A stretch of DNA of 64,000 nucleotides from an uncultured Desulfobacteraceae bacterium (lineage in GTDB: Bacteria; Desulfobacterota; Desulfobacteria; Desulfobacterales; UBA5616). Where the stretch lies: contig CAYLRU010000008.1 in NCBI GenBank assembly GCA_964386565.1, positions 8,110 to 72,109 on the forward strand, read 5' to 3'. Below, piece after piece: positions 8,823 through 24,228 of this stretch; the first letter of the stretch is position 1, and each line of letters opens with the position of its first letter. The notes beneath the pieces were generated by a model. That model made no database searches, had not been told where the DNA came from, and was given only the letters and a program-made list of their open reading frames with translations. Position numbers and translations under genes: made by a program.

Positions 8823-10487
8823 CTACATTTTTTCCGGTGATGTAACGCCCAGCAGGGCAAGTCCGTTGCGGATGACCTGTTTAACCGCGGTGACGAGATA
8901 TAAACGGCCCCGGGTTAACACCCTGTCATCCGATAACACACGGTGTTTATTGTAATAGGTATGGAACGCGGATGCAAGGTTTATCAGATAAAACGTAATC
9001 CTGTGGGGCTCCATGAATTCGGCGCTGGTTTTAACCACCTCGGGATATCCGGCCATGGCCCTGATCAGGGCGATTTCCTCGGGGGTGACGAGCCTGGATA
9101 CAGCATCCGCATCATATGGGATTTCATCGAATCCGCGTTCCGCAGCGTTCCTGATAATGCTGGATATCCTGGCATGCACGTACTGTACGTAATATACCGG
9201 GTTGTCGTTGGATTTTTTCTTTGCCAGTTCCAGGTCAAAATCCAGGGGGCTTTCATGATGACGGGTTAAAAAGATAAAACGAGCCGCATCACTGCCCACT
9301 TCGTCAACCACGTCTTTTAATGTAACGAATTCACCTGCCCGGGTGGACATGGCAACAGGCTCGCCTTCCCGCAACAGATTTACCAGTTGAACCAGAATAA
9401 CGTCAAATTTTTCCGTTTCATGTCCTGAAGCGGCGATGCAGGCCCGCATTCGCGGAATATAGCCGTGGTGGTCGGCCCCCCACACATCGATGATTCTGGA
9501 AAATCCCCGATCGAACTTATCCCCATGATAGGCAATATCCGAAGCAAAATACGTGGTGTCTCCATTGCTTCTCACCACAACGCGGTCTTTCTCATCCCCG
9601 AACGCCGTTGTTTTAAACCACCATGCCCCGTCTTTTTCATACACAAGGCCTTTTTGTTTGTAATCCTCGATGGAGCGATCCACCTTGCCGGCATCATATA
9701 AGGCCTGTTCGCTGAACCAATTGTCGTATTCGATGCCGAAGTTTTTTAAATCCTTCCCAATCTCATCGAGGATATGCTTGGCGGCAAACCGTGCACATTC
9801 GTTGACAGCCTCGTTTTCATCCATCTCCAGCAGTTTGTTTCCCCTTGCCGCCTGGATCATCCTTGCGATATCGGTGATATACGCCCCCTGATAACAATCT
9901 TCCGGAAAAGAAATATCAATACCGAACAAGGCCGTGTATCGTAAAAAAACGCTGCGCCCCAGCGTGTTGATCTGACGTCCGGAGTCATTAACATAGTACT
10001 CCCTTTGAACGTCGTATCCGCAGAGTTTCAAAATATTGGCAACCGCATCCCCCACGGCGGCGCCCCGGCCATGCCCCACATGCAAGGGACCCGTCGGGTT
10101 GGCACTGACGAATTCCACCTGCACCCGTTCATTGTTTCCCATATTTACGGCGCCGTATGTTTCATTCTGCACGTGGATGGTTTTCAATACGGGATGCCAT
10201 GCAGACGGTTTGACAAAAAAATTAATAAACCCGGGACCGGCGATCTCCACTTTTTCGAACAGGCCGTCCATATCAACGATTTGGCTGACAATGGCCTCGG
10301 CGATCTTTCTCGGGGCCATCTTTAAAACGGATGCGGACACCATGGCGATATTGGTGGAAAAATCCCCCTGGGTCTCAAATTTGGGCTCTTCGATTTCAAC
10401 GGCCGGAATATCCGGCGAGTTCAACATCTTGTTTTGGTAAGCACTGCGGGCCGCAGCCGTTACCAGTTTTTGTATCGTGTGCTTCAT
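8823..10487 (-). CDS. argS: arginine--tRNA ligase
   Basis: Class I HIGH motif ([12 protein letters not shown]), DALR anticodon-binding C-terminus and the terminal ...PEKM typical of ArgS. ATG 10487 lies 9 nt after GAGGA; the ORF extends to GTG 10517. Confidence 0.96.
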
Positions 10488-10695
10488 CTGCAGTATCCTC
10501 GAAATTAATCGTTTCACTTCATAAAGTGTTTCCCGTTGTTAGTCAAGATACTTGGCTTTCATCCGGCTTACCATCAAAATTAAATGTCGTTAACGCAGCG
10601 CTGTTTTCCCACGACTTCCGTCAAAGAGCCGGTTAGAAACGCAAAAACAGTCCTTCCTGGTGGAGAAGGATAGCGTTAATGACATTGAATTTCAA

Positions 10696-10854
10696 TTGAC
10701 AACACTTAAGATATTGTTTATAAATAAAAACAACTTCAGGCTGAAGCCTGAACCGAATATTCATTGCTGTCATGAAACCCACGCTGCCACGAAGGTAACC
10801 ATATCATGAAGATATGCGGATTTCGTGGTTTTTTTTTTGGAAACGGAGGATCAA
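10696..10854 (+). promoter_or_regulatory. promoter plus ~125-nt structured leader of the Ni/Co ECF transporter operon (candidate attenuator/riboswitch)
   Basis: TTGACA 10696-10701, 17-nt spacer, TATAAA 10719-10724. Hairpin TTCAGGC(10735-41)-tgaa-GCCTGAA(10746-52). Terminator at 10786-10838, then GGAGGA and ATG 10855. Confidence 0.55.
10786..10838 (+). terminator. intrinsic terminator inside the 5' leader, 6 nt upstream of the SD
   Basis: Outer stem CCACGAA(10787-93)/TTCGTGG(10822-28), inner stem CATATC/GATATG, followed by T10 (10829-10838). No plus-strand gene lies upstream for it to terminate. Confidence 0.65.
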
Positions 10855-11634
10855 ATGAAAAAAGGTTTATGTTTCAGTCTATCTTTGGTAGTTTTATCTT
10901 TATTATGCGTCTGTCCGGTCATGGCACACTACGGCATGATCATTGTCTCCGACACCATGGTGATGCAGGAGGACAATCGGACGGTCCACGTGGATCTCTC
11001 GTTTTCCCACCCGTTTGAACTCATCGGTATGGAACTGGAAAAGCCCAAAGTCTTTGGTGTGATGGCCAACGGTAAAAAACAGGATCTGCTGGAAACCCTG
11101 AAGCAAACCAAGGTAATGGATCATACGGCATGGACCGCAAATTATAAAATCAGACGACCGGGCATCTATATGTTTTACATGGAGCCGACCCCCTACTGGG
11201 AGCCGTCCGAGGATTGTTTTATTGTTCATTACACGAAAACCGTTGTGGCCGCCTTCGGGAACGACGAAGGGTGGGATGAACCAGTGGGATTGAAAACGGA
11301 AATCGTACCTGTTTCCAAACCCTTTGGGCTTTATGCGGGAAACGTATTCCAGGGTATGGTTCTGCTGGATGGAAACCCGGTACCCAACGCCGAGGTTGAG
11401 ATTGAATTTTACAACCAGCAGAAAAAATTCCAGGCACCCACGGACTATATGATCACCCAAACCATAAAGGCCGATCCCAACGGCATCTTCACCTATGCCC
11501 CCCCACAAGCAGGCTGGTGGGGATTTGCCGCGTTGAACACTGCTGATGAAAAAATACAACGAGACGGAAAAGACAAGGATGTGGAACTGGGCGCTGTTAT
11601 CTGGGTGAAATTTCACGAATTCAAAATGAAATAG
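10855..11634 (+). CDS. DUF4198-type periplasmic Ni/Co transporter component (NikK-like)
   Basis: ATG after GGAGGA; signal peptide MKKGLCFSLSLVVLSLLCVCPVMA-HYGMI. Size and position directly upstream of cbiM match the NikK/CbiK-type accessory component. Confidence 0.75.
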   Translation: MKKGLCFSLSLVVLSLLCVCPVMAHYGMIIVSDTMVMQEDNRTVHVDLSFSHPFELIGMELEKPKVFGVMANGKKQDLLETLKQTKVMDHTAWTANYKIRRPGIYMFYMEPTPYWEPSEDCFIVHYTKTVVAAFGNDEGWDEPVGLKTEIVPVSKPFGLYAGNVFQGMVLLDGNPVPNAEVEIEFYNQQKKFQAPTDYMITQTIKADPNGIFTYAPPQAGWWGFAALNTADEKIQRDGKDKDVELGAVIWVKFHEFKMK

Positions 11635-11645
11635 GAGACATCTCC

Positions 11646-12251
11646 ATGCATATTTCAGAAGGCGTATTGTCCGGTCCGGTCCTGATCTCCGGTTATGCAC
11701 TGGCAGCTGCCGGAACCGCCGTCGGACTGAAAAAACTGGATTACGAAAAAATCGCCCAGGTCGGTATTCTGGGGGCCTCGTTCTTTGTCGCGTCCCTGAT
11801 TCATGTTCCCATCGGCCCTGCAAACGTCCACCTGATTCTAAACGGTATTGTCGGGATGCTGCTGGGATGGGGGGCCTTCCCCGCCATCCTTGTAGCGTTG
11901 ACCCTTCAGGCTGTTTTGTTTCAATTCGGCGGCATCACCTCCCTTGGCGTCAATACGCTGACCATGGCAGCACCGGCAGTGGTCTGTTTTTACATGTTCG
12001 GATGGATCATCCGGAAAAAACCCGGTCTGGCCGGTATGGCCGCTTTTTTATGCGGGTTTACCGCCGTTTTTATGTCTGCAGTCATCGCCGGTGCCGCCCT
12101 GATGTTCACCGAAGAAAATTTCCTGAAGGTCGCAGCCCTCATTGTGGCGGCCCATCTTCCGGTCATGGTGGTGGAAGGATTGATCACGGCCTTTTGTGTT
12201 GAATTTTTAAGAAAAGTTCGTCCTGAGATACTGGCCATGCATTATTTATAA
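11646..12251 (+). CDS. cbiM: ECF transporter substrate-capture component CbiM/NikM
   Basis: Starts with the family hallmark MHISEGVL (Met1-His2 metal ligand). About 6 TM segments, 201 aa. Confidence 0.9.
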   Translation: MHISEGVLSGPVLISGYALAAAGTAVGLKKLDYEKIAQVGILGASFFVASLIHVPIGPANVHLILNGIVGMLLGWGAFPAILVALTLQAVLFQFGGITSLGVNTLTMAAPAVVCFYMFGWIIRKKPGLAGMAAFLCGFTAVFMSAVIAGAALMFTEENFLKVAALIVAAHLPVMVVEGLITAFCVEFLRKVRPEILAMHYL

Positions 12252-12299: not shown

Positions 12300-12983
12300 A
12301 TGTATGCGAAGAAAATCACCCAATCCGACTATACAATCATTGGAGAAAAAACCGTGGAAAACCGACTGTTCGGCAAAATATGCTTGTTATTTTTTGTGAC
12401 GGCATCCTTTTTCTCAATCACCTGCATCACTCCTGCCATGGCCCACAAGGTAACCGTGTTTGCCTGGGTGGAGGGCGACCAGGTGTTTACCGAAAGCAAA
12501 TTAAGCGGTGGAAAACGCGTTGCAGCGGGTGACATCACCGTTTACGATGCCTCCAACAACGTCCTTTTAAAAGGAAAAACCAATGACCAGGGAGAATTTT
12601 CATTTAAACTTCCACAAAAACCGCCCCTGATTATCGAGCTTAACGCCGGTATGGGACACCAGGCCAAATGGACCATTCAGCCGGATGACGTGGATGATGA
12701 TACCTTTCCAGCAGGCAATGATCCGGAAAAGGACATCATTGCCTCCGAACCGGTAAAAACAGCCCCGTCCGTGGACAGATCCGCGGAATTAAATACCGCG
12801 GATCTCGAAGCCGTGGTAGAAAGGGTCCTGGATAAAAAACTCAAACCCGTCATTCGATTGTTGGTGGATACCCGACAAAACGAACCGTCATTATCCGAAA
12901 TCATCGGCGGAATCGGCTATATCATGGGTATCGTGGGCATCATCGCCTATTTCCAAAGCCGGTCGCCGAAGCGGGACAAATAG
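12300..12983 (+). CDS. NikL-like nickel transport accessory protein (signal/TM - beta-sandwich - C-terminal TM)
   Basis: N-terminal hydrophobic segment ICLLFFVTASFFSITCITPAMA-HKV, a transthyretin/CarboxypepD_reg-like block (ITVYDASNNVLLKGKTNDQGEFSF) and a C-terminal TM (IIGGIGYIMGIVGIIAYF). Alternative start GTG 12354 after GGAG. Confidence 0.65.
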   Translation: MYAKKITQSDYTIIGEKTVENRLFGKICLLFFVTASFFSITCITPAMAHKVTVFAWVEGDQVFTESKLSGGKRVAAGDITVYDASNNVLLKGKTNDQGEFSFKLPQKPPLIIELNAGMGHQAKWTIQPDDVDDDTFPAGNDPEKDIIASEPVKTAPSVDRSAELNTADLEAVVERVLDKKLKPVIRLLVDTRQNEPSLSEIIGGIGYIMGIVGIIAYFQSRSPKRDK

Positions 12984-13014: not shown

Positions 13015-13773
13015 ATGATCGAAGAATATTTTACTGAAGCAGGTACCCAGATCCACCGGCTGGATCCGCGGCTTCGAATCGTTTTTGCCACGGCCTACGC
13101 GTTTTCCGTGGCCCCTCTCCATCGATTCGAACCCATGTATGCAGCGGCGGTGTTGTCCCTGTTGATGGTCATCCTGTCCGGAGTGGGTATCGGGACTCTG
13201 GTGAAGCGCATGCTGGCCTTTAACGGTCTTGTTCTTCTGTTCTGGCTGGTGCTGCCCTTCACCTTTTCCGGTGAAGCCCTTTACAGTATCGGCCCGTTTA
13301 CCATCACCCGGCCCGGTGTTATCATGTCTGCAAAGATCACGCTGAAGGCCAACGCCATCATGCCGGCTTTCATTGTCATGATTTCAACGATCCCCGTTTC
13401 AGTCATGGGCCATGCCCTGGAAAAGCTTCATGTGCCGAAAAAAATCGTTCATATTCTTCTGTTGACTTACCGTTACATATTCGTGATAGAACAGGAATAT
13501 CAGCGGCTGAAGCGTGCCATAAAAACAAGGGGGTTTGTTCCCGGGACCAATATGCACACATACAAAACCTATGCATACCTCATCGGCATGATATTTGTCC
13601 GATCCCTGGACCGGGCCCAACGGGTGCATCAGGCCATGATCTGCCGCGGATTTTGCGGAAAATTTTTCTCCCTGAACCGATTTTCCTTGAAAAAAGCAGA
13701 CTATGCTTTTCTGCCGATCATGGCAGCCGCGATTATCGGACTGGAGGTGATGGAATGGATTCCGATCCGGTGA
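13015..13773 (+). CDS. cbiQ: ECF transporter transmembrane (T) component CbiQ
   Basis: 252-aa polytopic protein with the CbiQ/EcfT signature region (YRYIFVIEQEYQRLKRAIKTRGF). Sits between cbiM and cbiO. Confidence 0.88.
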   Translation: MIEEYFTEAGTQIHRLDPRLRIVFATAYAFSVAPLHRFEPMYAAAVLSLLMVILSGVGIGTLVKRMLAFNGLVLLFWLVLPFTFSGEALYSIGPFTITRPGVIMSAKITLKANAIMPAFIVMISTIPVSVMGHALEKLHVPKKIVHILLLTYRYIFVIEQEYQRLKRAIKTRGFVPGTNMHTYKTYAYLIGMIFVRSLDRAQRVHQAMICRGFCGKFFSLNRFSLKKADYAFLPIMAAAIIGLEVMEWIPIR

Positions 13774-14486
13774 TCATCCAACTGGAAAAGGTTAATTTCT
13801 CGTATCCCAACGGCCGGGTTGTACTTAAAGATACCGATTTTTCCCTCCGGACAGGCCAGAAAATCGGATTGATCGGCCACAACGGAAGCGGTAAATCCAC
13901 CTTCTTGCACATCCTGGTCGGGTTATTGAAAATATCCGGCGGTTCCATTCGCTTCTTCAGAGAACCGGTGGTATCTGAAAAAGATTTTCAAAAGGTCAGG
14001 CAGCACATCGGCCTGGTATTTCAGAATTCCGACGACCAGCTTTTCAGCCCAACGGTATTGGAAGACATTGCCTTTGGGTTGTTGAATCAGGGCAAAACAC
14101 CTGAAGAAGCCCGGGAAATATCCAGGAAACTGCTGACCGACCTCGACCTGAAAGATTTTGAAAACCGGGTCACCTACCGGCTGTCCGGCGGCGAAAAGCG
14201 GCTGGTAGCCCTGGCAACGGTTCTCGTCATGGAACCCCGGGTGCTGTTGCTGGATGAACCGTTTACCGGGCTGGACGAATACACCCGGGATCACATCATT
14301 GAAATCCTGAATCATCTGGATATCAGCTATATCATCGTGACCCATGAATACGACTCCCTGGTCCAGACCACCAGTGACATCTGCAGCATGGAGAATGGCA
14401 AAATCATTTATAACGGCGATTCATCCATGCTCCACAGCCATTTTCACCGGCACCCCGGGGGAACCGTCCACCATCATCACCGATAG
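13755..14486 (+). CDS. cbiO: ECF transporter ATPase CbiO with His-rich C-terminal tail
   Basis: ATG 13755 after GGAGGTGATGGA, overlapping the cbiQ end by 19 nt. Walker A GHNGSGKST, signature LSGGEKR, Walker B LLLDEP. Tail: HSHFHRHPGGTVHHHHR. Confidence 0.9.
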   Translation: MDSDPVIIQLEKVNFSYPNGRVVLKDTDFSLRTGQKIGLIGHNGSGKSTFLHILVGLLKISGGSIRFFREPVVSEKDFQKVRQHIGLVFQNSDDQLFSPTVLEDIAFGLLNQGKTPEEAREISRKLLTDLDLKDFENRVTYRLSGGEKRLVALATVLVMEPRVLLLDEPFTGLDEYTRDHIIEILNHLDISYIIVTHEYDSLVQTTSDICSMENGKIIYNGDSSMLHSHFHRHPGGTVHHHHR

Positions 14487-14494
14487 CGACACCG

Positions 14495-15421
14495 ATGACA
14501 GACGATATTCTTATTCAGCATCATTTCCTGTTTCAAAAAGGATTCTTTGAAAGGCACCCTTCCCTTTTTGATATCTATTTCCGCAATACCCCGAGAAAGC
14601 TGTACGACAAATTGGAAAAGACAAAAGCCGCCCTTACCGCCTATGAAGGAACCATTCAATGGCCGGCGATCAGGGGGCCGGGATTTTGCGGGGCCACCCA
14701 TCCCGGGGCCGGAAAAAGTTTTAACGGCTACATGACGGGCTGCTCCCCGTCTTTTTACAACAGCGACTGTCTTTATGTCCATCCGGGTCTGAACATTTTT
14801 GCCGTATCCGACCCCCCCGGGATCACCACAATCTCCCGAAAGCTTTTTGAAAAACTGGATGACCGGTTAAGAAAAACAACCACGGATAGACTTGATACTG
14901 TCATCAATGACCTGGCCGCCGGCATCCAGGAAAACGGGCCCACCCTGGCATTGATTCAATTTCAACAATACGGCATCTCCCGGACGCCAAACCGGGCATT
15001 TGTTTATATCGCCGGTGACACCGAAGTATACCGGGGAAACTTTAAAGGGGAAAAAATCAAACGGATTAACGGCAGCCCGCATTTCTGGGGAACTGCATGC
15101 CATGATTTAAAGCCCCGCGTGTTTGAATTGAACAGCAACGATTTTTTTCTTATCGTCAGTGACGGCATCAGCAGTCTGAGACAGACCGTTCCCGAGCATG
15201 GAATCGAAAAAATCCTTTGGGAACATATCATTCGTGATCCTGAAAAATTTGCCGAAAACGTCACCATGACCTGCAACCGGGTTTTTACCCAAAACAATAA
15301 CGGCAGATCCCGAACCCTGCTCGGCGGAACGGATGACATCACCGCCCTGCTAGTCGTCCCATCGGCGCTTGCCCAAATCCCTGTTGATAAAGGATACATA
15401 CTGGGAGGACACATCGGCTAA
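14495..15421 (+). CDS. PP2C/SpoIIE-family phosphatase-like protein
   Basis: Starts 8 nt after cbiO. Degenerate PP2C motifs FAVSDPPG, FFLIVSDGISS and GGTDDITALLV. Confidence 0.55.
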   Translation: MTDDILIQHHFLFQKGFFERHPSLFDIYFRNTPRKLYDKLEKTKAALTAYEGTIQWPAIRGPGFCGATHPGAGKSFNGYMTGCSPSFYNSDCLYVHPGLNIFAVSDPPGITTISRKLFEKLDDRLRKTTTDRLDTVINDLAAGIQENGPTLALIQFQQYGISRTPNRAFVYIAGDTEVYRGNFKGEKIKRINGSPHFWGTACHDLKPRVFELNSNDFFLIVSDGISSLRQTVPEHGIEKILWEHIIRDPEKFAENVTMTCNRVFTQNNNGRSRTLLGGTDDITALLVVPSALAQIPVDKGYILGGHIG

Positions 15422-15645: not shown

Positions 15646-16518
15646 TCATTGTCCCGGGTTCCAGACGTCCCTGAGGCTGTCCCCCAAAAGATTAAAGGCC
15701 AATACGGAAAGCATGATGGCAATTCCCGGATATACTGAAAGATGGGGTGCGCTTAAAATATAGTCTTTCCCTTCCATGAGCAACGTACCCCATTCCGGAT
15801 AGGGTGGCTGGACACCGAATCCCAAAAACCCAAGGGCCGATACGGCAATAATTGCCTTTGCCAGTCCGATGGTGGCAAGAACGATGACCGATCCGATGTT
15901 TGCCGGCAAGATATGGCGAAAAACAATAACAATTCTTGATACCCCTGAAAACTGCGCGACTTTTACATAATCCCGTTCCTTAACAGAAAGGGTAATCCCT
16001 CTGACAAGTCTGGCGTAACGCATCCAGCCGGTAATGGAAAGGGCAAAAATCAGATTAAATGTGCCCGGTCCCATTAGCCCTGCCAGTGTCATGGCAGCAA
16101 CTATCTCAGGAAGGGAAAGAAAAATATCGGCAATTCTCATGAGCAATTCATCCATGAGACCGCCCTGGTAGCCGGCAACCAACCCAACCATTACTCCCAA
16201 AAGGCAGGAAACCATCACCACAGAAACTCCCAGCCCTATGGACATGCGCGCACCAGACAAAATACGTGAAAAAAGACACCGGCCCAAGGCATCATTGCCC
16301 AGAGGATATTGCAGGCAAGGAGAAGCTAATCTTAAAGACAAATCTGTCTTCAGGGGATCATGGGGGGATAGCGCAGGCCCCAAGGCAGCTATAAAAAACA
16401 CCACGACTGCGATTACGGCCGCGCCTGAAATCAGGGGGTTTTTAATTACGGAGCGGTAAAATCTGCCCTGGATTTTTTCATATCCGGCATGCTCCCGCGA
16501 AAAATCATGAGCACTCAT
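15646..16518 (-). CDS. Opp/Dpp/Nik-type ABC transporter permease (DppC/NikC-like)
   Basis: 290-aa polytopic protein with the BPD_transp_1 EAA-type region. Overlaps the upstream permease by 4 nt. Confidence 0.9.
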   Translation of the reverse strand: MSAHDFSREHAGYEKIQGRFYRSVIKNPLISGAAVIAVVVFFIAALGPALSPHDPLKTDLSLRLASPCLQYPLGNDALGRCLFSRILSGARMSIGLGVSVVMVSCLLGVMVGLVAGYQGGLMDELLMRIADIFLSLPEIVAAMTLAGLMGPGTFNLIFALSITGWMRYARLVRGITLSVKERDYVKVAQFSGVSRIVIVFRHILPANIGSVIVLATIGLAKAIIAVSALGFLGFGVQPPYPEWGTLLMEGKDYILSAPHLSVYPGIAIMLSVLAFNLLGDSLRDVWNPGQ

Positions 16519-17453
16519 AATGGTCGAATCCGTGGATCCAGATATTGGTAGACAATATCCACAAAAAAATTAATCAGGACAAAAATCATAGCGGTAAAAA
16601 ACACCAGACCTTGTATCAAAGGATAATCCCTGTTGCTGACCGCATTGACCATCAGTTCCCCCAGCCCCGGCCATGCGAAAATGGTTTCCGTTATCACTGC
16701 TCCCTCAAGAATCATTCCCAATTCCAGCCCCACCACGGTAACTACAGGTATCATTGCATTTTTCAATATGTGACCTCCGAGCACGAGGCGGCTACTGACG
16801 CCTCTGGCGCGAAGGGCCAACAGGTATTCAGACTGCAAGGTTTCTGCGACGGCGGAACGCAAAATTCGTGTCGTATAGGCCGTCAGTGCGGTTCCCAGTG
16901 TTATGGCGGGCAAAACCAGATGCTGCCAATCCCCACGGCCAAAGCTTGGAAGCCAATGAAGTTTCACACAAAAAACAACAATGAGCACCAGCCCAAGCCA
17001 GTAATTGGGCATGGAAATACCGGTTACGGCAACCGCAACTCCGATTGAATCAAGCCATGTGCCTTGCCTGACGCCTGAAAGAATACCGATTGGCACGGAT
17101 ATGATCAGTGCAAGGAAAATGGCGGTTATGGCAAGATCAAAGGTACGGCTGAATCGAATGCTGATGAGTTCCCAAACAGGTACTTCCTCCACCAGTGATA
17201 TGCCAAAGTCAAGACGGACGACATGCTTCAACCAATGGAAATATTGCTGATAAAAAGGCTTGTCCAATCCTTCTTCCTGAATGATCCATTCAATGGTGGC
17301 CTGATCTACTAAACCTGGTTCTCCATAGCGGGCAATGGCTATCTCCAGGGGGGCGTCACCCGGTGCAAGCAGCATCATGGCGTAGGTAAAAAAAGTTGCG
17401 CCAATGAGGACAAAAATTGCGGTAACTATGCGCTTTGATATGAATCGTACCAT
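16515..17453 (-). CDS. Opp/Dpp/Nik-type ABC transporter permease (DppB/NikB-like)
   Basis: 312 aa with the typical DppB N-terminus (IVTAIFVLIGATFFTYAMMLLAPGDP) and C-terminus (IVYQYLDPRIR). Confidence 0.9.
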   Translation of the reverse strand: MVRFISKRIVTAIFVLIGATFFTYAMMLLAPGDAPLEIAIARYGEPGLVDQATIEWIIQEEGLDKPFYQQYFHWLKHVVRLDFGISLVEEVPVWELISIRFSRTFDLAITAIFLALIISVPIGILSGVRQGTWLDSIGVAVAVTGISMPNYWLGLVLIVVFCVKLHWLPSFGRGDWQHLVLPAITLGTALTAYTTRILRSAVAETLQSEYLLALRARGVSSRLVLGGHILKNAMIPVVTVVGLELGMILEGAVITETIFAWPGLGELMVNAVSNRDYPLIQGLVFFTAMIFVLINFFVDIVYQYLDPRIRPL

Positions 17454-17477
17454 TCAAACATTTTTCTATAACTGACG

Positions 17478-19277
17478 TTAATCTAAATGACAAAAAATCT
17501 CATGTTCGCACGTGATATTTCTTTTTAACGGCGCGATTTTTTCGCATACCGAGAGCCGTCGGGGGCATCTTGAGTGAAATATACAGCCGGATGGCGGGTC
17601 ATAAGGAGACGGAATCTCCCCTTCAAGAACGATCCGTTTATCCTGCCATAGGCCGGGTTTTAGTGCATTTGACAAAAGGGCCTGTGAATATGGATGGCGA
17701 GCGGAGGAAAAAAAGATTTCCACCGGGGCCTTTTCAACGATTCTTCCCAGATACATTACAGCCACGGTTGTGCCGATGTCTTTGACAAGGCCGAGGTCGT
17801 GGGTAATGAGAAAACAGGTCAGGCCATGCCGCCTTTTCAGCCTGTAAAGCAGCTTCGCCATGTCTTTTTGGTTCACAGCATCCAGAGCGCTCAGGGGTTC
17901 GTCGAGAAATAAAAGATCGGGGCCGGTTGAAAGGGCACGGGCGATACATGCTCTTTGATTCTGACCCACCGATACTCTCCCGGGTGGTTGCTGAAGCAAA
18001 GAGTATGAAAGCCCCACTTCCGCTGCCAATCTTTTGACAATCTTTTCCCTCTCTTTCTTCTTAACACCCCTGGCATGTAACGGCTCCATAATAGACTGTC
18101 CCAAGGAAAGATAGGGGCTTAAAGAAGCAACCGGATCCTGGAAGACCACCTGGGACTTGGATTTCATCCTTTGATGGACCGGATCGCCGGGCCGCCTGAC
18201 GGGTTGACCATCGAAAATCATCTCACCTTCCTGATACGGACAGAATCCTAGCATGGCGTTTATCAGGGTTGTCTTTCCGGAACCGCTTTCACCTATCAGG
18301 CAAAAGATCTCTTCACGGCGGACATCCAGACTGATATTCCTTACGGCATAAAATGAACGATGGGAAAAGAGCGTTTCGGCCCTAAGCGTGAATTGAACGG
18401 AAAAGTTGCGGATGGAAATGGCGGAAGCTGTCTCCGGTTTTTCATACCTGTTCCCGACTTGTTCAGACATACCTGAAACAAGCCGCCGGGTATATGGATG
18501 TGACGGTCGGAAAACTATTTCACGCGCTGCCCCGTTTTCCACGATATGGCCCTTGTGCATCACCGCTACCCGGTCACATACCTCCAGGGCAACTGAGAGG
18601 TCGTGGGTGATAAAGATGATTCCGGTGCCATAACGTTTTTTTAAAAGGGCGATTAACTGGATGATCTGCACGGTAATCGTAGGATCAAGGGCCGATGTAA
18701 CTTCATCCAGTATCACGACTTCCGGCCTGGTGGAAAATGCCATTTGTAACTGGGCACGTTGCAGCATCCCCCGGCTCCATTGATGGGGATACTGCCGACA
18801 CCGTTCTTCCGGTGAAGCAATGCCAACCGTTTGGAGAAGGTCATTTATTTTTTGATTTTCCCTTTCCTGTTTTCTCCATCTACGCTTTTTTAAGCCGGAG
18901 CGAACCGACAGAACATCTTTGAATTGGTTACCCACTGTAAAGACCGGGTCCATCGCGCTTTTGGGATTTTGCAGCACCAGGGATATCTTACGTCCCCTGA
19001 AATACTGCATCTTTTGCTGACTTTGCGTGGTGAGCTCTTGACCACCCAGAACAATGGAACCGGAAACAATTTTTCCCGGGTATTCCAGCCGTACAAGGGT
19101 CCTGGCAAAAACGCTTTTCCCGCAACCGGATTCCCCCACAAGGCCGAGAATTTCACCCCGGTTAAGCGAGAGACATAGACCATCGAGAACCCTTGGACCG
19201 GTCGCCCTGCCTGGTAAATCGACAACCAGGTTTTTCACCTTAAGAATTGGATTCGCTGCTGTCGCGCGTTGATACAT
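17478..19277 (-). CDS. fused double ATPase of Opp/Dpp/Nik-type ABC transporter (DppD-DppF fusion)
   Basis: 599 aa with two nucleotide-binding domains: Walker A GESGCGKS and GESGSGKT, two signature/Walker B sets (ILDEVTSALD, LFLDEPLSALD). Confidence 0.9.
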   Translation of the reverse strand: MYQRATAANPILKVKNLVVDLPGRATGPRVLDGLCLSLNRGEILGLVGESGCGKSVFARTLVRLEYPGKIVSGSIVLGGQELTTQSQQKMQYFRGRKISLVLQNPKSAMDPVFTVGNQFKDVLSVRSGLKKRRWRKQERENQKINDLLQTVGIASPEERCRQYPHQWSRGMLQRAQLQMAFSTRPEVVILDEVTSALDPTITVQIIQLIALLKKRYGTGIIFITHDLSVALEVCDRVAVMHKGHIVENGAAREIVFRPSHPYTRRLVSGMSEQVGNRYEKPETASAISIRNFSVQFTLRAETLFSHRSFYAVRNISLDVRREEIFCLIGESGSGKTTLINAMLGFCPYQEGEMIFDGQPVRRPGDPVHQRMKSKSQVVFQDPVASLSPYLSLGQSIMEPLHARGVKKKEREKIVKRLAAEVGLSYSLLQQPPGRVSVGQNQRACIARALSTGPDLLFLDEPLSALDAVNQKDMAKLLYRLKRRHGLTCFLITHDLGLVKDIGTTVAVMYLGRIVEKAPVEIFFSSARHPYSQALLSNALKPGLWQDKRIVLEGEIPSPYDPPSGCIFHSRCPRRLSVCEKIAPLKRNITCEHEIFCHLD

Positions 19278-19317
19278 TTTTCAGCACCTGCCGTTTTTGC
19301 ACCGGGTGGTTGAGAAT

Positions 19318-20904
19318 TCATTTTCGATAGATCTCGGGGGTCAGAAGGAATTTCTCCGCCGGATGAATCCGGTAGTTTTGCACATAATTATAGGCGACGG
19401 ATACCATTGATTTGTAAAACAGCACAATCACAGGACTGTCGTCATAGATAATTTCCTGAATCCGGTCATAAATTATTTTGCGCTTTTTAGGGTCAAAAGT
19501 GACTTTTCCTTTTCTCGCCAATTCGTCCAGTTCCGAGTTGTGGTATCCCATACAGTTTGACCCGGCCTGGCCGGTAAAAACATTGGAGATGAAAAAATCA
19601 GGGTCACCTTCAGGAGCAACGTTCCACATCTGCAAATTTAAATGAACCTCGCCTTTTCTCATGGCCCTGCTGATAGGTGATCCCCTTTGGGTAATTTTCA
19701 GCTTTGTAATGATGCCCACCCTATGCAATTGTGCCTGTATCAATTCAAGGACCGGTTTTAACGATGCACGTCCTTCATAGGTCCACATATTCAGTAACAA
19801 CGGCCGGCCGGCCATTTCCAATATCCCGTCTCCGTCACTGTCTTTGGCGCCGGCCTCAGCCAAAAGCTTTAATGCTTTGTCAGGGTCATAAGGATACGGT
19901 TTCAGGTTACGGTTACCCCAGGGAATGGTTCCAGGAAAAACTGACGCGCCGACTTGTCCCCCCACGCCGCCAAGAACCGTATCAACAATCTCCTGTCGAT
20001 TGATGGCATGGTTGATGGCCTTTCGGACACGGGAATCGGCAAGAGGGCCGTCTGCAATCCTTACAAAAAAAAAGCAAAGCCGATTGGTGGGTTCGTGATA
20101 GATTCGGACGTCTTTTCGCGATGCCATGCGCTTTACATCATTTTCAGGAAAATTTGTCACCACATCCAATTGTCCGGCTTCAAACGCCAGCATCCGCGTT
20201 GAAGGGTTCCTGATGATTTTCAGATGAACTTTTGCAAGCTTTGCCCTGCCCCCCCAATAACCGTCAAATCGGGACACAATCATCTCTTCCTTTGGAATCA
20301 CCTTGTCCAATACAAACGGGCCGGTGCCGTAAATTCTTTCTTTACTGCTCCCGGGGCTGACAATCCCTGTCCCAGGTGATGTTAAATAATATAAAAACGC
20401 AGCATTGGGCTTATGGGTTTCAAATACCAGGATATCGTTATCCTTAACGGTGATGTTTTTGATATCCAGCATTTTCTGTATCCGTATATTGAACACCTCG
20501 CTTTTTTTATCAATAATACGGTCAATGGACCATTTAACGGCTCTGGCGTTTAAGGGTGTATTGTCATGAAACCGGATCCCATTTTTTAATTTGATCTCCC
20601 AGATTAAAGGACTGAGGTTTTTGGATGCAGCCACGAGCCAGGGCCTTAAATTCATTTCAAAGTCAAGCACAAAGAGCGTTTCGGTCACTCCGGCCTCGTT
20701 GGTGTACCAACCGTTGGCCCCTTTGGCCGGATCAGGACATTTTACGGATGGGCCAAAAGGTTTGGCAATGATCAGTTTGTCCGGTCCGGCTGCAAAAACA
20801 CCGGTAGCAAATAATTCCAGTGAAAACAGAAGGATCAGTATAACAGCCAGACCAATCTCCCTATCTTCTTGCATGCGCAATAAAGAATGCCGGTTTTTTT
20901 TCAT
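19318..20904 (-). CDS. family 5 (DppA/NikA-type) ABC substrate-binding protein
   Basis: SBP_bac_5-like sequence across about 500 aa. Signal peptide after MKKNRHSLLRMQEDRE-IGLAVILILLFSLELFATGVFA. The start is ambiguous (20904, 20874, or up to 21051); every option overlaps the methyltransferase 3' end. Confidence 0.85.
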   Translation of the reverse strand: MKKNRHSLLRMQEDREIGLAVILILLFSLELFATGVFAAGPDKLIIAKPFGPSVKCPDPAKGANGWYTNEAGVTETLFVLDFEMNLRPWLVAASKNLSPLIWEIKLKNGIRFHDNTPLNARAVKWSIDRIIDKKSEVFNIRIQKMLDIKNITVKDNDILVFETHKPNAAFLYYLTSPGTGIVSPGSSKERIYGTGPFVLDKVIPKEEMIVSRFDGYWGGRAKLAKVHLKIIRNPSTRMLAFEAGQLDVVTNFPENDVKRMASRKDVRIYHEPTNRLCFFFVRIADGPLADSRVRKAINHAINRQEIVDTVLGGVGGQVGASVFPGTIPWGNRNLKPYPYDPDKALKLLAEAGAKDSDGDGILEMAGRPLLLNMWTYEGRASLKPVLELIQAQLHRVGIITKLKITQRGSPISRAMRKGEVHLNLQMWNVAPEGDPDFFISNVFTGQAGSNCMGYHNSELDELARKGKVTFDPKKRKIIYDRIQEIIYDDSPVIVLFYKSMVSVAYNYVQNYRIHPAEKFLLTPEIYRK

Positions 20905-21601
20905 TCTGTTTTTTGCCCCCATAAGGATTAAAGCCAACGCGAGATGTATCATAAGATCGAATCTCTTTAAAACGGGCAGCATGCAAAAGCATGCTGGCCT
21001 TTTCAAAGCAAATGCCTTCATAAAATGGAAGCGACTTTTGCAGACCGGCATAGCTTCGGAAAAAACGAAGGAAAATCATACTGCGGTTCCGGCGCATCCC
21101 TTTGAGCAATTTGAAAGCCAAATGATGAATACGCTTCCAAGTGGTATTCATCCATAACCCGTCGGATACTATCAAGATGCCTTCTGGTTTCAAAATCCGC
21201 CGCCATTCTTCAAGTGCTTTATCGGGATGCGGAAGCGTCCACAACAAATTCCGGGAAACCACCACATCAAAAGTGCTGTCACCGAACGCAAGCGCCTCGG
21301 CGTCTCCGATCTGAAAATCGATATCAAGCCCTTGATTTGCTGCATATTGCCCGGCAATGAAAAGCATGTTTTCGGCCAGATCGATACCCGTCACGTTGAA
21401 ACCGGCACGGGCGAGATATACGGCAAACTGTCCGGTCCCGGTTCCGATATCCAGCGCGCGCCTTCCGGGAGCCCCTGGAGCCAGTTCTTTTAAAATGGAT
21501 TCCCAGTTCTTGGCTATTGCAATCGACTTGTCCGTATCATGGCCGTAACTTCTGCTTCTCCAGTTCCAGTAATTTTTAATCGAAGCTTTTACCCTGTCCA
21601 T
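20861..21601 (-). CDS. class I SAM-dependent methyltransferase
   Basis: SAM-binding motif I ALDIGTGTGQFAVYLARAGFNVTGIDLAENML, then the acidic post-I and motif II region (GDAEALAFGDSTFDVVVS). Confidence 0.85.
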   Translation of the reverse strand: MDRVKASIKNYWNWRSRSYGHDTDKSIAIAKNWESILKELAPGAPGRRALDIGTGTGQFAVYLARAGFNVTGIDLAENMLFIAGQYAANQGLDIDFQIGDAEALAFGDSTFDVVVSRNLLWTLPHPDKALEEWRRILKPEGILIVSDGLWMNTTWKRIHHLAFKLLKGMRRNRSMIFLRFFRSYAGLQKSLPFYEGICFEKASMLLHAARFKEIRSYDTSRVGFNPYGGKKQNEKKPAFFIAHARR

Positions 21602-21704: not shown

Positions 21705-24020
21705 TTAGTAGCAAACGCTCACCGTACCGAGCCAAAATCGGCCGGGGGCACGGTAGTATTCATAGTATTTTTCATCAAAAAGATTGTCCACGGAAAGGGA
21801 GAGTGCGATATGGTCCATCGGCCTGGCAGTTATCTTGGCGTCTACAATATGGTATTCGTCATCTGCTCTGTATGTTGTGTCCGCATATTGGGCATATTCA
21901 TCATCGTATCTGCTGTCACAATATCTATAGCTGATGCTCGCATCCAGGTAACGGCCGAAATAGCCAAGCCAGAGGCTCCACATGTCCGTGGGCGTCTCAT
22001 TCACTTCCCATCCCAGCTTGGAAGAAACTTGCGTTTTCGTATATTCGGACCAGTTATGCGCATAAAACAGACCGGCCTTCATATTGTGGGGCAGAAGGGC
22101 TTCAATCGAGGCCTCGATACCGTTTACCTCGGCCTCTTCGGCATTGACCCGCTTTTTCTCTGTTACCTGGGTTCCGTCCGCAAGGGTATAAGTTGTTGTT
22201 TGATTTACGATCAGGTCCTTAAAATCATTTTCAAAATAGGTTGCCTTGACCCGGATGCGCTTTTCCCAGAATTCCCATTCCGTACCGATCTCCCAGGATT
22301 TATTGGTCGTGGGGCCAAGGTCGGGATTCGGATCGGCCATGGAAATGGTTCCGCCGCCTTCCCAATAGTAGCTTGCGGTTCTGTAATACAGGGAAGGTGC
22401 GGTAAATGCTTCGCCATACGACGCCCGAACTGTACCGTTCTCAAATGGACGATACACCAACGACACTTTGGGGCTGAACTTTCCGTCATCCGTGTCCGGG
22501 TATTCGATATTACTTCCGTCAATATTGGAATAGTCTGCATCAGTACCCCACCAATGGTCGTAGCGGCCGCCCAGATAGGCAGTCAAATGGTCTGCAGGTG
22601 AATACTCCACCTGGATGAATGTTCCCAGCGTACGGTTTTTGCCTGAAGTCTCTTCCCTGACGGATACAGTGCTGTCTTTGTCGTAAGGATCGGAAAGGTT
22701 ATTGTCCGTGACCGTGGCCTCTTCCTGAACGCCTTGAATTCCCACCGTAACCAGGCATTTGTCGTTCAAATAATGAAATGTGGCTGCCAGATCGGCCTGG
22801 GCAAGGTAATTGTCTTCCACCTTATACCGGCTGTTGCTGATATTATGGGTCGCACTTTCCTTATCGTTGAAAGCGAGAAGACCAACGATATCTACCGAGT
22901 CGGGTATTGAGTGATTGAAACGCAGGGTGTGGACCATGGATTCTTTTGTTTTCGGGTTCGAAGTAAAATTAAACGGGCTCAATGTTGTTGTGTATGTGTT
23001 TCCCCCATCCTGAATATAGACATCGCCTTCATAGAGGGTTGTTCCGGATGAATTCTTCAGAAAGCTCTTCCCGTCCTTCCAACCGTATTCGAATTCGCTG
23101 ATATTGAGGCTGTACCATAACCGGGTATTGGGGGCGAAGTCATAACCTGTTTTAAAAAACAGGCCGTGGTCTTCATACCAGTTGTCGCCCTGATGACCGA
23201 TCTTGTAGCGATCATTTCCGGTTTGCGGATCAACATCCTTTTCCCAGCCTGTTACTATCGGGATATTGGGATCAAGCACACCTGTAACGGGGGTGTTCAG
23301 GCTTTTGTAAGAAGGAGTCGTGACATAGCCGTCCGAACTACGCGATTTGAAACTGAACGAGTAAAAAAAACGGTCGCCAAGGATGGTGGGGTCAAACCAG
23401 AAACTCCGTTTCCTGCCACCATTTTTCTTTCCAAAAGGTCGATCGGCAAATCTGAAACTGTAAAAATGGCTGTTCCAGTTGCCGTAAGAAGCCGAGGCAT
23501 CTATCTCCGCATCTTCCGGTATTTTTGTTGTATAATTAATAACGCCGGTCTGGGCCAACGTTCCGTATAGCGCGGAAAACGGCCCTCTGACCACGTCAAT
23601 TCTTTCCACATCCGGCATCGGTATGGCACCGGTATGCGAATAGTAGCCGTAATCGTACCAATTGACCCCGTCAACCTGAACAAGGGCTCTTTGGCTGCGG
23701 ATAACAGGCCGGGCCCAATAGTCCGCCAGCCCCCGGTACTGCCTTGGCCAGATCCCTTCCGTCAGGACAAGCGGTTTAAAGGGGTGCTCGGAATTAAAGG
23801 CCTTTATTTCATCTTCCGTAATGACGGAAACGCTTGCCGGAGCATCTATCGGCGCTTTTGGTGTTCTTGTTGCCATAACCGTTATGGGTTCAAGTTGGTA
23901 CGGTTCGGCATCATGTCTGACCGTCGACTGGTGGCCGGCGTCTTCTGTCTCAGCCCACACCGGTTGACAAATAAAAAAGATCATTGCCGCTGCAAAACAC
24001 AATATCGATTTCAACTTCAT
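21705..24020 (-). CDS. TonB-dependent outer-membrane receptor
   Basis: ATG 24020 after GGAGGAGG; signal peptide MKLKSILCFAAAMIFFICQPVWA. Plug-domain motifs (EPITVMATR, VVRGPFSALYG), a long beta-barrel and an aromatic C-terminus. Confidence 0.92.
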   Translation of the reverse strand: MKLKSILCFAAAMIFFICQPVWAETEDAGHQSTVRHDAEPYQLEPITVMATRTPKAPIDAPASVSVITEDEIKAFNSEHPFKPLVLTEGIWPRQYRGLADYWARPVIRSQRALVQVDGVNWYDYGYYSHTGAIPMPDVERIDVVRGPFSALYGTLAQTGVINYTTKIPEDAEIDASASYGNWNSHFYSFRFADRPFGKKNGGRKRSFWFDPTILGDRFFYSFSFKSRSSDGYVTTPSYKSLNTPVTGVLDPNIPIVTGWEKDVDPQTGNDRYKIGHQGDNWYEDHGLFFKTGYDFAPNTRLWYSLNISEFEYGWKDGKSFLKNSSGTTLYEGDVYIQDGGNTYTTTLSPFNFTSNPKTKESMVHTLRFNHSIPDSVDIVGLLAFNDKESATHNISNSRYKVEDNYLAQADLAATFHYLNDKCLVTVGIQGVQEEATVTDNNLSDPYDKDSTVSVREETSGKNRTLGTFIQVEYSPADHLTAYLGGRYDHWWGTDADYSNIDGSNIEYPDTDDGKFSPKVSLVYRPFENGTVRASYGEAFTAPSLYYRTASYYWEGGGTISMADPNPDLGPTTNKSWEIGTEWEFWEKRIRVKATYFENDFKDLIVNQTTTYTLADGTQVTEKKRVNAEEAEVNGIEASIEALLPHNMKAGLFYAHNWSEYTKTQVSSKLGWEVNETPTDMWSLWLGYFGRYLDASISYRYCDSRYDDEYAQYADTTYRADDEYHIVDAKITARPMDHIALSLSVDNLFDEKYYEYYRAPGRFWLGTVSVCY

Positions 24021-24228
24021 TTCAAATCCTCCTCCAAATAAAAAAGCCACGAAGTCGCTCTCCTTTCCGGGAGCACAGACCTTCGTGGCCTTTTGTTCAG
24101 GCTCTTTATATTGTTTCCGCCGATATACGGCGACATGACTTTTGGCTTTGCCCTGAAATTAAACCGTTTGCGACTTCTGCCGCAGATTAAGAAAGAATTT
24201 TTTTACTTGATATTTTCCGGGAAGTCAA
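24021..24228 (-). promoter_or_regulatory. promoter plus ~170-nt structured leader of the TonB-receptor/ABC operon (candidate attenuator/riboswitch, related to 10696-10854)
   Basis: Read on the minus strand: TTGACT (24228-24223), 17-nt spacer, TAAAAA (24205-24200). TTCAGGGC (24157-24150) can pair with GCCTGAA (24102-24096). Internal hairpin CGCCG-tatat-CGGCG (24132-24118). Terminator at 24089-24036, then GGAGGAGG (24035-24028) and ATG 24020. Confidence 0.55.
24036..24089 (-). terminator. intrinsic terminator inside the 5' leader, abutting the SD
   Basis: 5' arm GCCACGAAGGTC and 3' arm GACTTCGTGGC (one bulged G), with an inner GCTCC/GGAG(A)GC stem, followed by TTTTTTATTT and then directly GGAGGAGG. 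Confidence 0.65.

Follow-up and report, generated by a model that had tools for sequence, protein, structure and literature searches.

In our analysis of a 64,000-nucleotide stretch of DNA from an uncultured Desulfobacteraceae bacterium (hereafter the window), we found a nickel/cobalt ECF importer operon headed by a promoter and by an RNA leader which ends in an intrinsic terminator and whose structure is conserved, with covarying pairs, among related genomes. The same type of leader precedes the gene of a TonB-dependent receptor on the other strand. We read the leader as a hitherto uncharacterised attenuator, specific to the order, which heads a metal-uptake regulon of Desulfobacterales that lack NikR, and its conservation together with the lack of a match to known RNA families points to a metal-uptake switch that has so far escaped characterization. 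NikR is the usual nickel regulator; the switch described here is probably run by a putative RNA-binding protein instead. In sulfate-reducing Desulfobacterales, metal uptake is important for hydrogenases and CO dehydrogenase, nickel enzymes of their energy metabolism, and also shapes the competition for trace metals in sediments. The regulator missing from these genomes would be an order-wide RNA attenuator ahead of Ni/Co ECF importers, TonB receptors, and siderophore porins.

Two leaders of the same type in the window

Judged by family matches, the gene order DUF4198-CbiM-NikL-CbiQ-CbiO below the first leader (Table 1) corresponds to the nikKMLQO arrangement known from Ni/Co ECF importers. Rodionov et al. 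(2004, PMC545781) described this gene order in delta-proteobacteria as being under NikR control, and DUF4198 proteins (Zcp) are known elsewhere as Zur- or Fur-controlled periplasmic metal-capture proteins that were once misannotated as CbiM/NikM (PMC12663993). The preliminary description of this DNA had reported a TTGACA-17-TATAAA promoter, a leader free of ORFs, a terminator, a Shine-Dalgarno sequence and an ATG in succession, with argS running divergently, and all of these were found in place (argS at 8823-10517 on the minus strand). The promoter was missed by a consensus scanner because its -10 hexamer ends in A; from its position we infer a transcription start near 10730.

The leader itself (10725-10854) is the 130 nt that separate the promoter from the ATG (10855). 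It encodes no leader peptide, and neither of its two plus-strand ORFs is credible: one of them (49 aa, GTG start) begins upstream of the promoter, and the other (70 aa) starts inside the terminator without a Shine-Dalgarno sequence. The intrinsic terminator (10785-10838) combines an inner stem, CATATC/GATATG (10800-10805/10811-10816), and a ten-T run with an outer stem in which CCACGAA (10787-10793) pairs with TTCGTGG (10822-10828) as part of a longer GCCACGAAGG/CCTTCGTGG-type stem. RNAfold predicts this terminator structure for the operon leader with a z-score of -2.3 against shuffled sequences. A transcription attenuator has this arrangement, in which no gene intervenes from the promoter to the start codon and an intrinsic terminator lies in between. 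Promoter, leader, and terminator stand directly before the Shine-Dalgarno sequence with no ORF among them, and termination would have to be overcome for the operon to be expressed.

The leader of the TonB-receptor gene (24020-24190, minus strand) has the same elements as the operon leader. Both carry the identical 11-mer GCCACGAAGGT, TTCGTGG with a U-run, and GGAGGAGG, in agreement with the preliminary description. The TTCAGGC...GCCTGAAC helix which it had also taken to be shared was not recovered; in the TonB leader, TTCAGGG and GCCTGAAC do not pair and lie about 50 nt from each other, and its actual P1 is the hairpin GCGGC-AGAA-GUCGC. The sequence GCCACGAAGG occurs twice in the window (at 10786 and at 24080 on the minus strand) against 0.12 occurrences expected by chance, and six times in the whole genome, where the other four copies lie inside genes and look like chance matches. 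For the 14-mer of P1, the genome-wide count allowing 2 mismatches showed a coding-sequence bias, and the backwards control was frequent as well.

Table 1. Coordinates of the two leaders and the genes below them (positions in the window).
Feature	Position	Strand	Basis
-35 hexamer TTGACA, operon promoter	10696-10701	+	sequence
-10 hexamer TATAAA, 17-nt spacer	10719-10724	+	sequence
P1 hairpin CAGGC-UGAA-GCCUG at the transcript 5' end (about +5 to +22); covarying stem, loop ending in GAA	10735-10752	+	fold, RNAalifold and covariation on 24 leaders
P2, terminator 5' arm GCCACGAAGGT, nearly invariant order-wide; predicted mini-hairpin NCC-ACGAA-GGN before the 3' arm is made	10785-10795	+	
P3, inner hairpin CAUAUC-AUGAA-GAUAUG in the terminator loop; compensatory changes in every pair	10800-10816	+	
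Terminator 3' arm TTCGTGG and T10 run (T10 at 10829-10838)	10822-10838	+	
Shine-Dalgarno GGAGGA, 6 nt past the U-run	10845-10850	+	sequence
DUF4198 (PF10670; Zcp/NikK-like periplasmic protein), which opens the operon below the leader, ATG at 10855	10855-11634	+	Pfam
CbiM/NikM ECF substrate-specific component	11646-12251	+	Pfam, NCBIfam PRK06265
NikL family nickel/cobalt ECF transporter subunit	12300-12983	+	NCBIfam NF058648
CbiQ energy-coupling T component	13015-13773	+	Pfam
CbiO ATPase, start codon uncertain, overlaps CbiQ	13653-14486	+	Pfam
TonB-dependent receptor, 771 aa (Plug and beta-barrel), the other gene headed by a leader of this type	21705-24020	-	Pfam
TonB-receptor leader, terminator 3' arm CTTCGTGG and U-run (approximate)	24040-24053	-	
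TonB-receptor leader, P3 inner hairpin, loop GGAAA (approximate)	24058-24073	-	
TonB-receptor leader, P2/terminator 5' arm GCCACGAAGGT	24079-24089	-	
TonB-receptor leader, P1 hairpin GCGGC-AGAA-GUCGC, near the transcript 5' end	24170-24183	-	sequence, fold

Conservation and target genes across Desulfobacterales

We collected the DUF4198 orthologous loci from 34 Desulfobacterales and related genomes, and the same leader was found at most of them. An alignment of 24 leaders gave an RNAalifold consensus and a covariance model; the consensus comprises a hairpin at the 5' end (P1), a terminator whose core 5' arm is invariant in sequence, and an inner hairpin (P3). In this alignment 92% of the cells were paired in the consensus, against 37-46% with the partners slid, and both-sided changes occurred at 14 pairs, with compensatory changes in all six pairs of P3; the structure to which these covariation statistics refer was derived from the same 24 leaders. 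The covariance model is specific, its only matches in the whole genome of the bacterium being the two window leaders and a third copy. The third copy (C27:23-160, minus strand; locus L051) lies at a contig end. The assembly breaks off before the gene under its control, which was not recovered from any overlapping contig. The preliminary description had looked to relatives for conservation of the leader blocks, and this expectation was borne out: the element is present in 16 of the 21 Desulfobacterales genomes searched with the model, and strong matches are rare elsewhere in the phylum.

In relatives, the element stands ahead of genes which encode DUF4198 proteins (in many cases), CbiM alone, CbiM-PDGLE, NikL operons, and TonB-dependent receptors, including a TonB ortholog in another family, and further LbtU-family siderophore porins, FhuD-like ferrichrome-type binding proteins, and an outer-membrane beta-barrel. 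The siderophore-porin and FhuD-like cases come from other Desulfobacterales (loci L058, L068, L064, L067, and L071). With these two families among its targets, the regulon would reach beyond nickel and cobalt, and we read it from these gene families as a metal-acquisition regulon broader than Ni/Co.

Order-wide conservation of the 5' arm sequence and the loop motifs over so many different target genes makes it highly improbable that the leader is not regulatory at all, that is, a constitutive partial terminator merely limiting expression. Control at the level of DNA deserves more attention, as P1 (about +5 to +22) is a 7-4-7 inverted repeat in a typical operator position in both leaders. It could be the operator of a repressor, with the terminator as a leaky attenuator which is constitutive and holds expression at a low level, and the changes in the P1 stem could then reflect the symmetry of a palindrome. 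We consider this quite unlikely nonetheless, for the 5' arm sequence and the inner hairpin loops are conserved beyond the need of a simple terminator, P3 covaries inside the RNA terminator, and no matching operator was found among the known ones searched (NikR, Zur).

A predicted second fold of the terminator 5' arm

The sequence of the terminator 5' arm, CCACGAAGG, is nearly invariant among the 24 leaders whereas the other helices covary. The bases that flank it (pos1/pos11) are always pairable, as A-U, G-U, or G-C, and the 5' arm should therefore be able to form a mini-hairpin of its own, P2, with an ACGAA pentaloop. RNAfold placed P2 beside P3 in transcripts cut before the 3' arm (p>0.7 in 14 of 23 leaders), and in full-length transcripts P2 gave way to the terminator with p of about 1. 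In these models the folding of P2 would be a second role for the terminator 5' arm, like that of the ANTAR P2 hairpins which overlap a terminator.

The preliminary description had proposed instead an exchange of pairing partners among four strands, those of P1 and those of the terminator. This is not supported, as no consistent complementary partner was found; in the leaders searched we found no conserved cis sequence complementary to it and hence no cis antiterminator.

The loops of P1, P2, and P3 all end in GAA while the stems vary; the loop tally gives UGAA, AGAA, AGGAA, AAGAA, and CGAA for P1, ACGAA for P2, and AUGAA, AGGAA, AAGAA, GGAAA, and others for P3. Such GAA loop ends amid varying stems would be the mark of a recognition motif. 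As a separate observation, the leader at one locus of a Thermodesulfobacteriota MAG (L032) has a second CCACGAAGG within its inner hairpin, so that the ACGAA-loop unit is duplicated.

The distance between P1 and the terminator is variable (about 40-100 nt), which would be tolerated if a factor loaded at P1 were to ride with RNA polymerase and suppress the terminator downstream. Models for such processive antitermination are lambda N at boxB and a specialised NusG paralog at its leader site. P1 lies at the 5' end of the transcript in both leaders, and the genome encodes a second NusG paralog (C1:121037-121318, minus strand; locus L079), RfaH/UpxY-like and 175 aa long, separate from the housekeeping NusG which lies on contig C83 beside rplK/rplA. 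However, the paralog adjoins lptD, hup, and holB with no link to the leader genes, and a factor loaded at P1 would leave the conservation of the P2 and P3 loops unexplained, so we regard this route as improbable.

Comparison with known regulators and RNA families

At the gathering threshold, Rfam gave no matches in the window and 10 relative loci, and at E-value thresholds it gave only unrelated chance matches, in line with the preliminary description, which had recognised no known riboswitch class. The consensus likewise does not resemble a known riboswitch, consisting of three simple hairpins and a terminator joined by variable linkers, with no multi-helix junction aptamer. In their main text, the motif papers of Weinberg (2010/2017) mention no TonB, cbiM, or nickel motif. 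The NiCo riboswitch (czcD motif) and other metal riboswitches are likewise cis-RNAs which act on metal transport genes via terminator formation, but they are multi-helix junction aptamers recognised by Rfam, in contrast to the small, simple hairpins of the leader.

The main rival of protein-mediated antitermination is nevertheless a new riboswitch that senses a metal (e.g., Ni2+/Co2+) directly, the ion stabilising P2 through the GAA-loop hairpins or tertiary contacts and so preventing the terminator with no protein involved. The metal-uptake regulon free of NikR and cobalamin riboswitch control, the conserved loops, and the competition between P2 and terminator in the RNAfold predictions are all compatible with it. 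Weighed against these, the three hairpins are small, separate, and variably spaced, the loop conservation is short, Rfam finds no match, and siderophore porins and FhuD-like proteins would be odd company in the regulon of one ion. We hold direct metal sensing to be unlikely, a minority possibility.

In many bacteria, cobalamin riboswitches (cbiMNQO/btuB) control TonB receptors as well as the transporter genes for cobalt and B12. No RF00174 match was found at either leader, and cobalamin riboswitches are present at four other loci of the genome (C12:51263, C4:38550, C3:85552, and C4:10582; L041-L044), upstream of a btuB-like TonB receptor, a BtuF-like binding protein, and other B12 genes. The leader element is a system separate from the cobalamin riboswitches, because it gives no cobalamin match while these riboswitches stand at the four btuB/btuF-type loci.

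NikR control of nikKMLQO concerns the same layout of target operon (DUF4198 or NikK-like protein, NikM/CbiM, NikL, NikQ, NikO) but works through a protein-DNA operator, GTGTTAC-N13-GTAACAC (PMC545781), which is absent here. The genome has no NikR gene, and neither NikR operators nor Desulfovibrio-type Zur (Zur_D) operators were found near the leaders; the preliminary description was correct that the operon shows neither NikR control nor a cobalamin riboswitch. NikR was present in none of 6 leader-bearing genomes (our own and 5 relatives) versus 2 of 5 leaderless ones, a small sample of related genomes. Zur and Fur control applies to the same families (DUF4198, TBDRs), which are induced by metal starvation (PMC12663993), but through transcription-factor operators, in contrast to the RNA terminator leader described here.

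A close resemblance in layout is to the ANTAR systems, in which 5'-leader hairpins carry conserved loops, an intrinsic terminator shares its 5' side with the second of these hairpins, and binding of the hairpins is proposed to prevent the terminator from forming (PMC3369931, PMC8934654). As in these dual-hairpin systems (EutV/AmiR/NasR), the P2 mini-hairpin of the leader coincides with the terminator 5' arm. The differences are several. The loops are GAA-ending tetra- and pentaloops (UGAA, ANGAA) and not the ANTAR hexaloops with A1 and G4, the first hairpin lies 40-100 nt upstream at a variable distance, a third hairpin is present inside the terminator, and the genome encodes no ANTAR-domain protein (PF03861 is absent at the cut-off, with only noise at E<=10).

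Possible mechanism of the leader

Taken together, the small modular hairpins, the variable spacing of P1, the GAA loops, and the invariant 5' arm resemble a protein-recognised antiterminator more closely than they do an aptamer for a ligand. We tentatively favour the reading that the conserved leader attenuates transcription, with OFF as its default state, and that a putative trans-acting RNA-binding antiterminator relieves it. Transcripts would start near 10730 and, without help, would stop at the terminator before the ribosome-binding site of the operon, and the TonB-receptor transcript on the other strand would meet the same default stop. Before the 3' arm is made, the 5' arm would fold as P2 (loop ACGAA) beside P3 (loop ANGAA). 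An RNA-binding antiterminator protein that is active at metal scarcity could then bind the GAA-loop hairpins, P2 being the most critical of them; P2, once bound, would be locked, the terminator blocked, and RNA polymerase would go on into the operon. P1 may serve as a loading or high-affinity site. Promoter, terminator, and the conserved structure with its covariation are seen in the sequences; the protein factor and its signal are what we infer.

Several points weigh against trans-acting antitermination. No candidate antiterminator protein was found in the genome, ANTAR being absent; the spacing of P1 and the terminator is unlike the fixed P1-P2 spacing of ANTAR targets; the GAA loops could instead make tertiary contacts in a riboswitch; and the covariation statistics rest on a structure taken from their own alignment. 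The preliminary description had put forward a shared cis-RNA acting as an OFF switch on metal importers. A shared, conserved attenuating leader is indeed present, but the riboswitch part of that proposal is not supported, the architecture being more like that of a protein antiterminator, and the wording "OFF switch" is apt only in the sense of a terminated default state.

A bolder formulation, which we regard as doubtful, is that three GAA-loop hairpins, one doubling as the terminator 5' arm, constitute either an undescribed metal-sensing RNA class or the target of an undescribed, non-ANTAR antiterminator family, and that this device replaces NikR in Desulfobacterales for nickel/cobalt and siderophore-type uptake. 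A leader that operates through protein-mediated antitermination with a GAA-loop code would point to a new family of RNA-binding antiterminators, and one that senses metal by itself would represent a new class of metal riboswitch.

Surroundings of the two leaders

The window holds several further genes around the two transcription units. An ORF of 308 aa without a Pfam match (14495-15421, plus strand) follows CbiO. Just upstream of the TonB receptor lies an oligopeptide ABC transporter cluster (SBP_bac_5, two permeases, and a tandem ATPase) together with a methyltransferase (15646-21051, minus strand). A hybrid-cluster-type Prismane protein (PF03063; 24961-26574, plus strand) is encoded divergently from the receptor, and its gene is followed by those of an HD-domain zinc-ribbon protein and then a 4Fe-4S ferredoxin.
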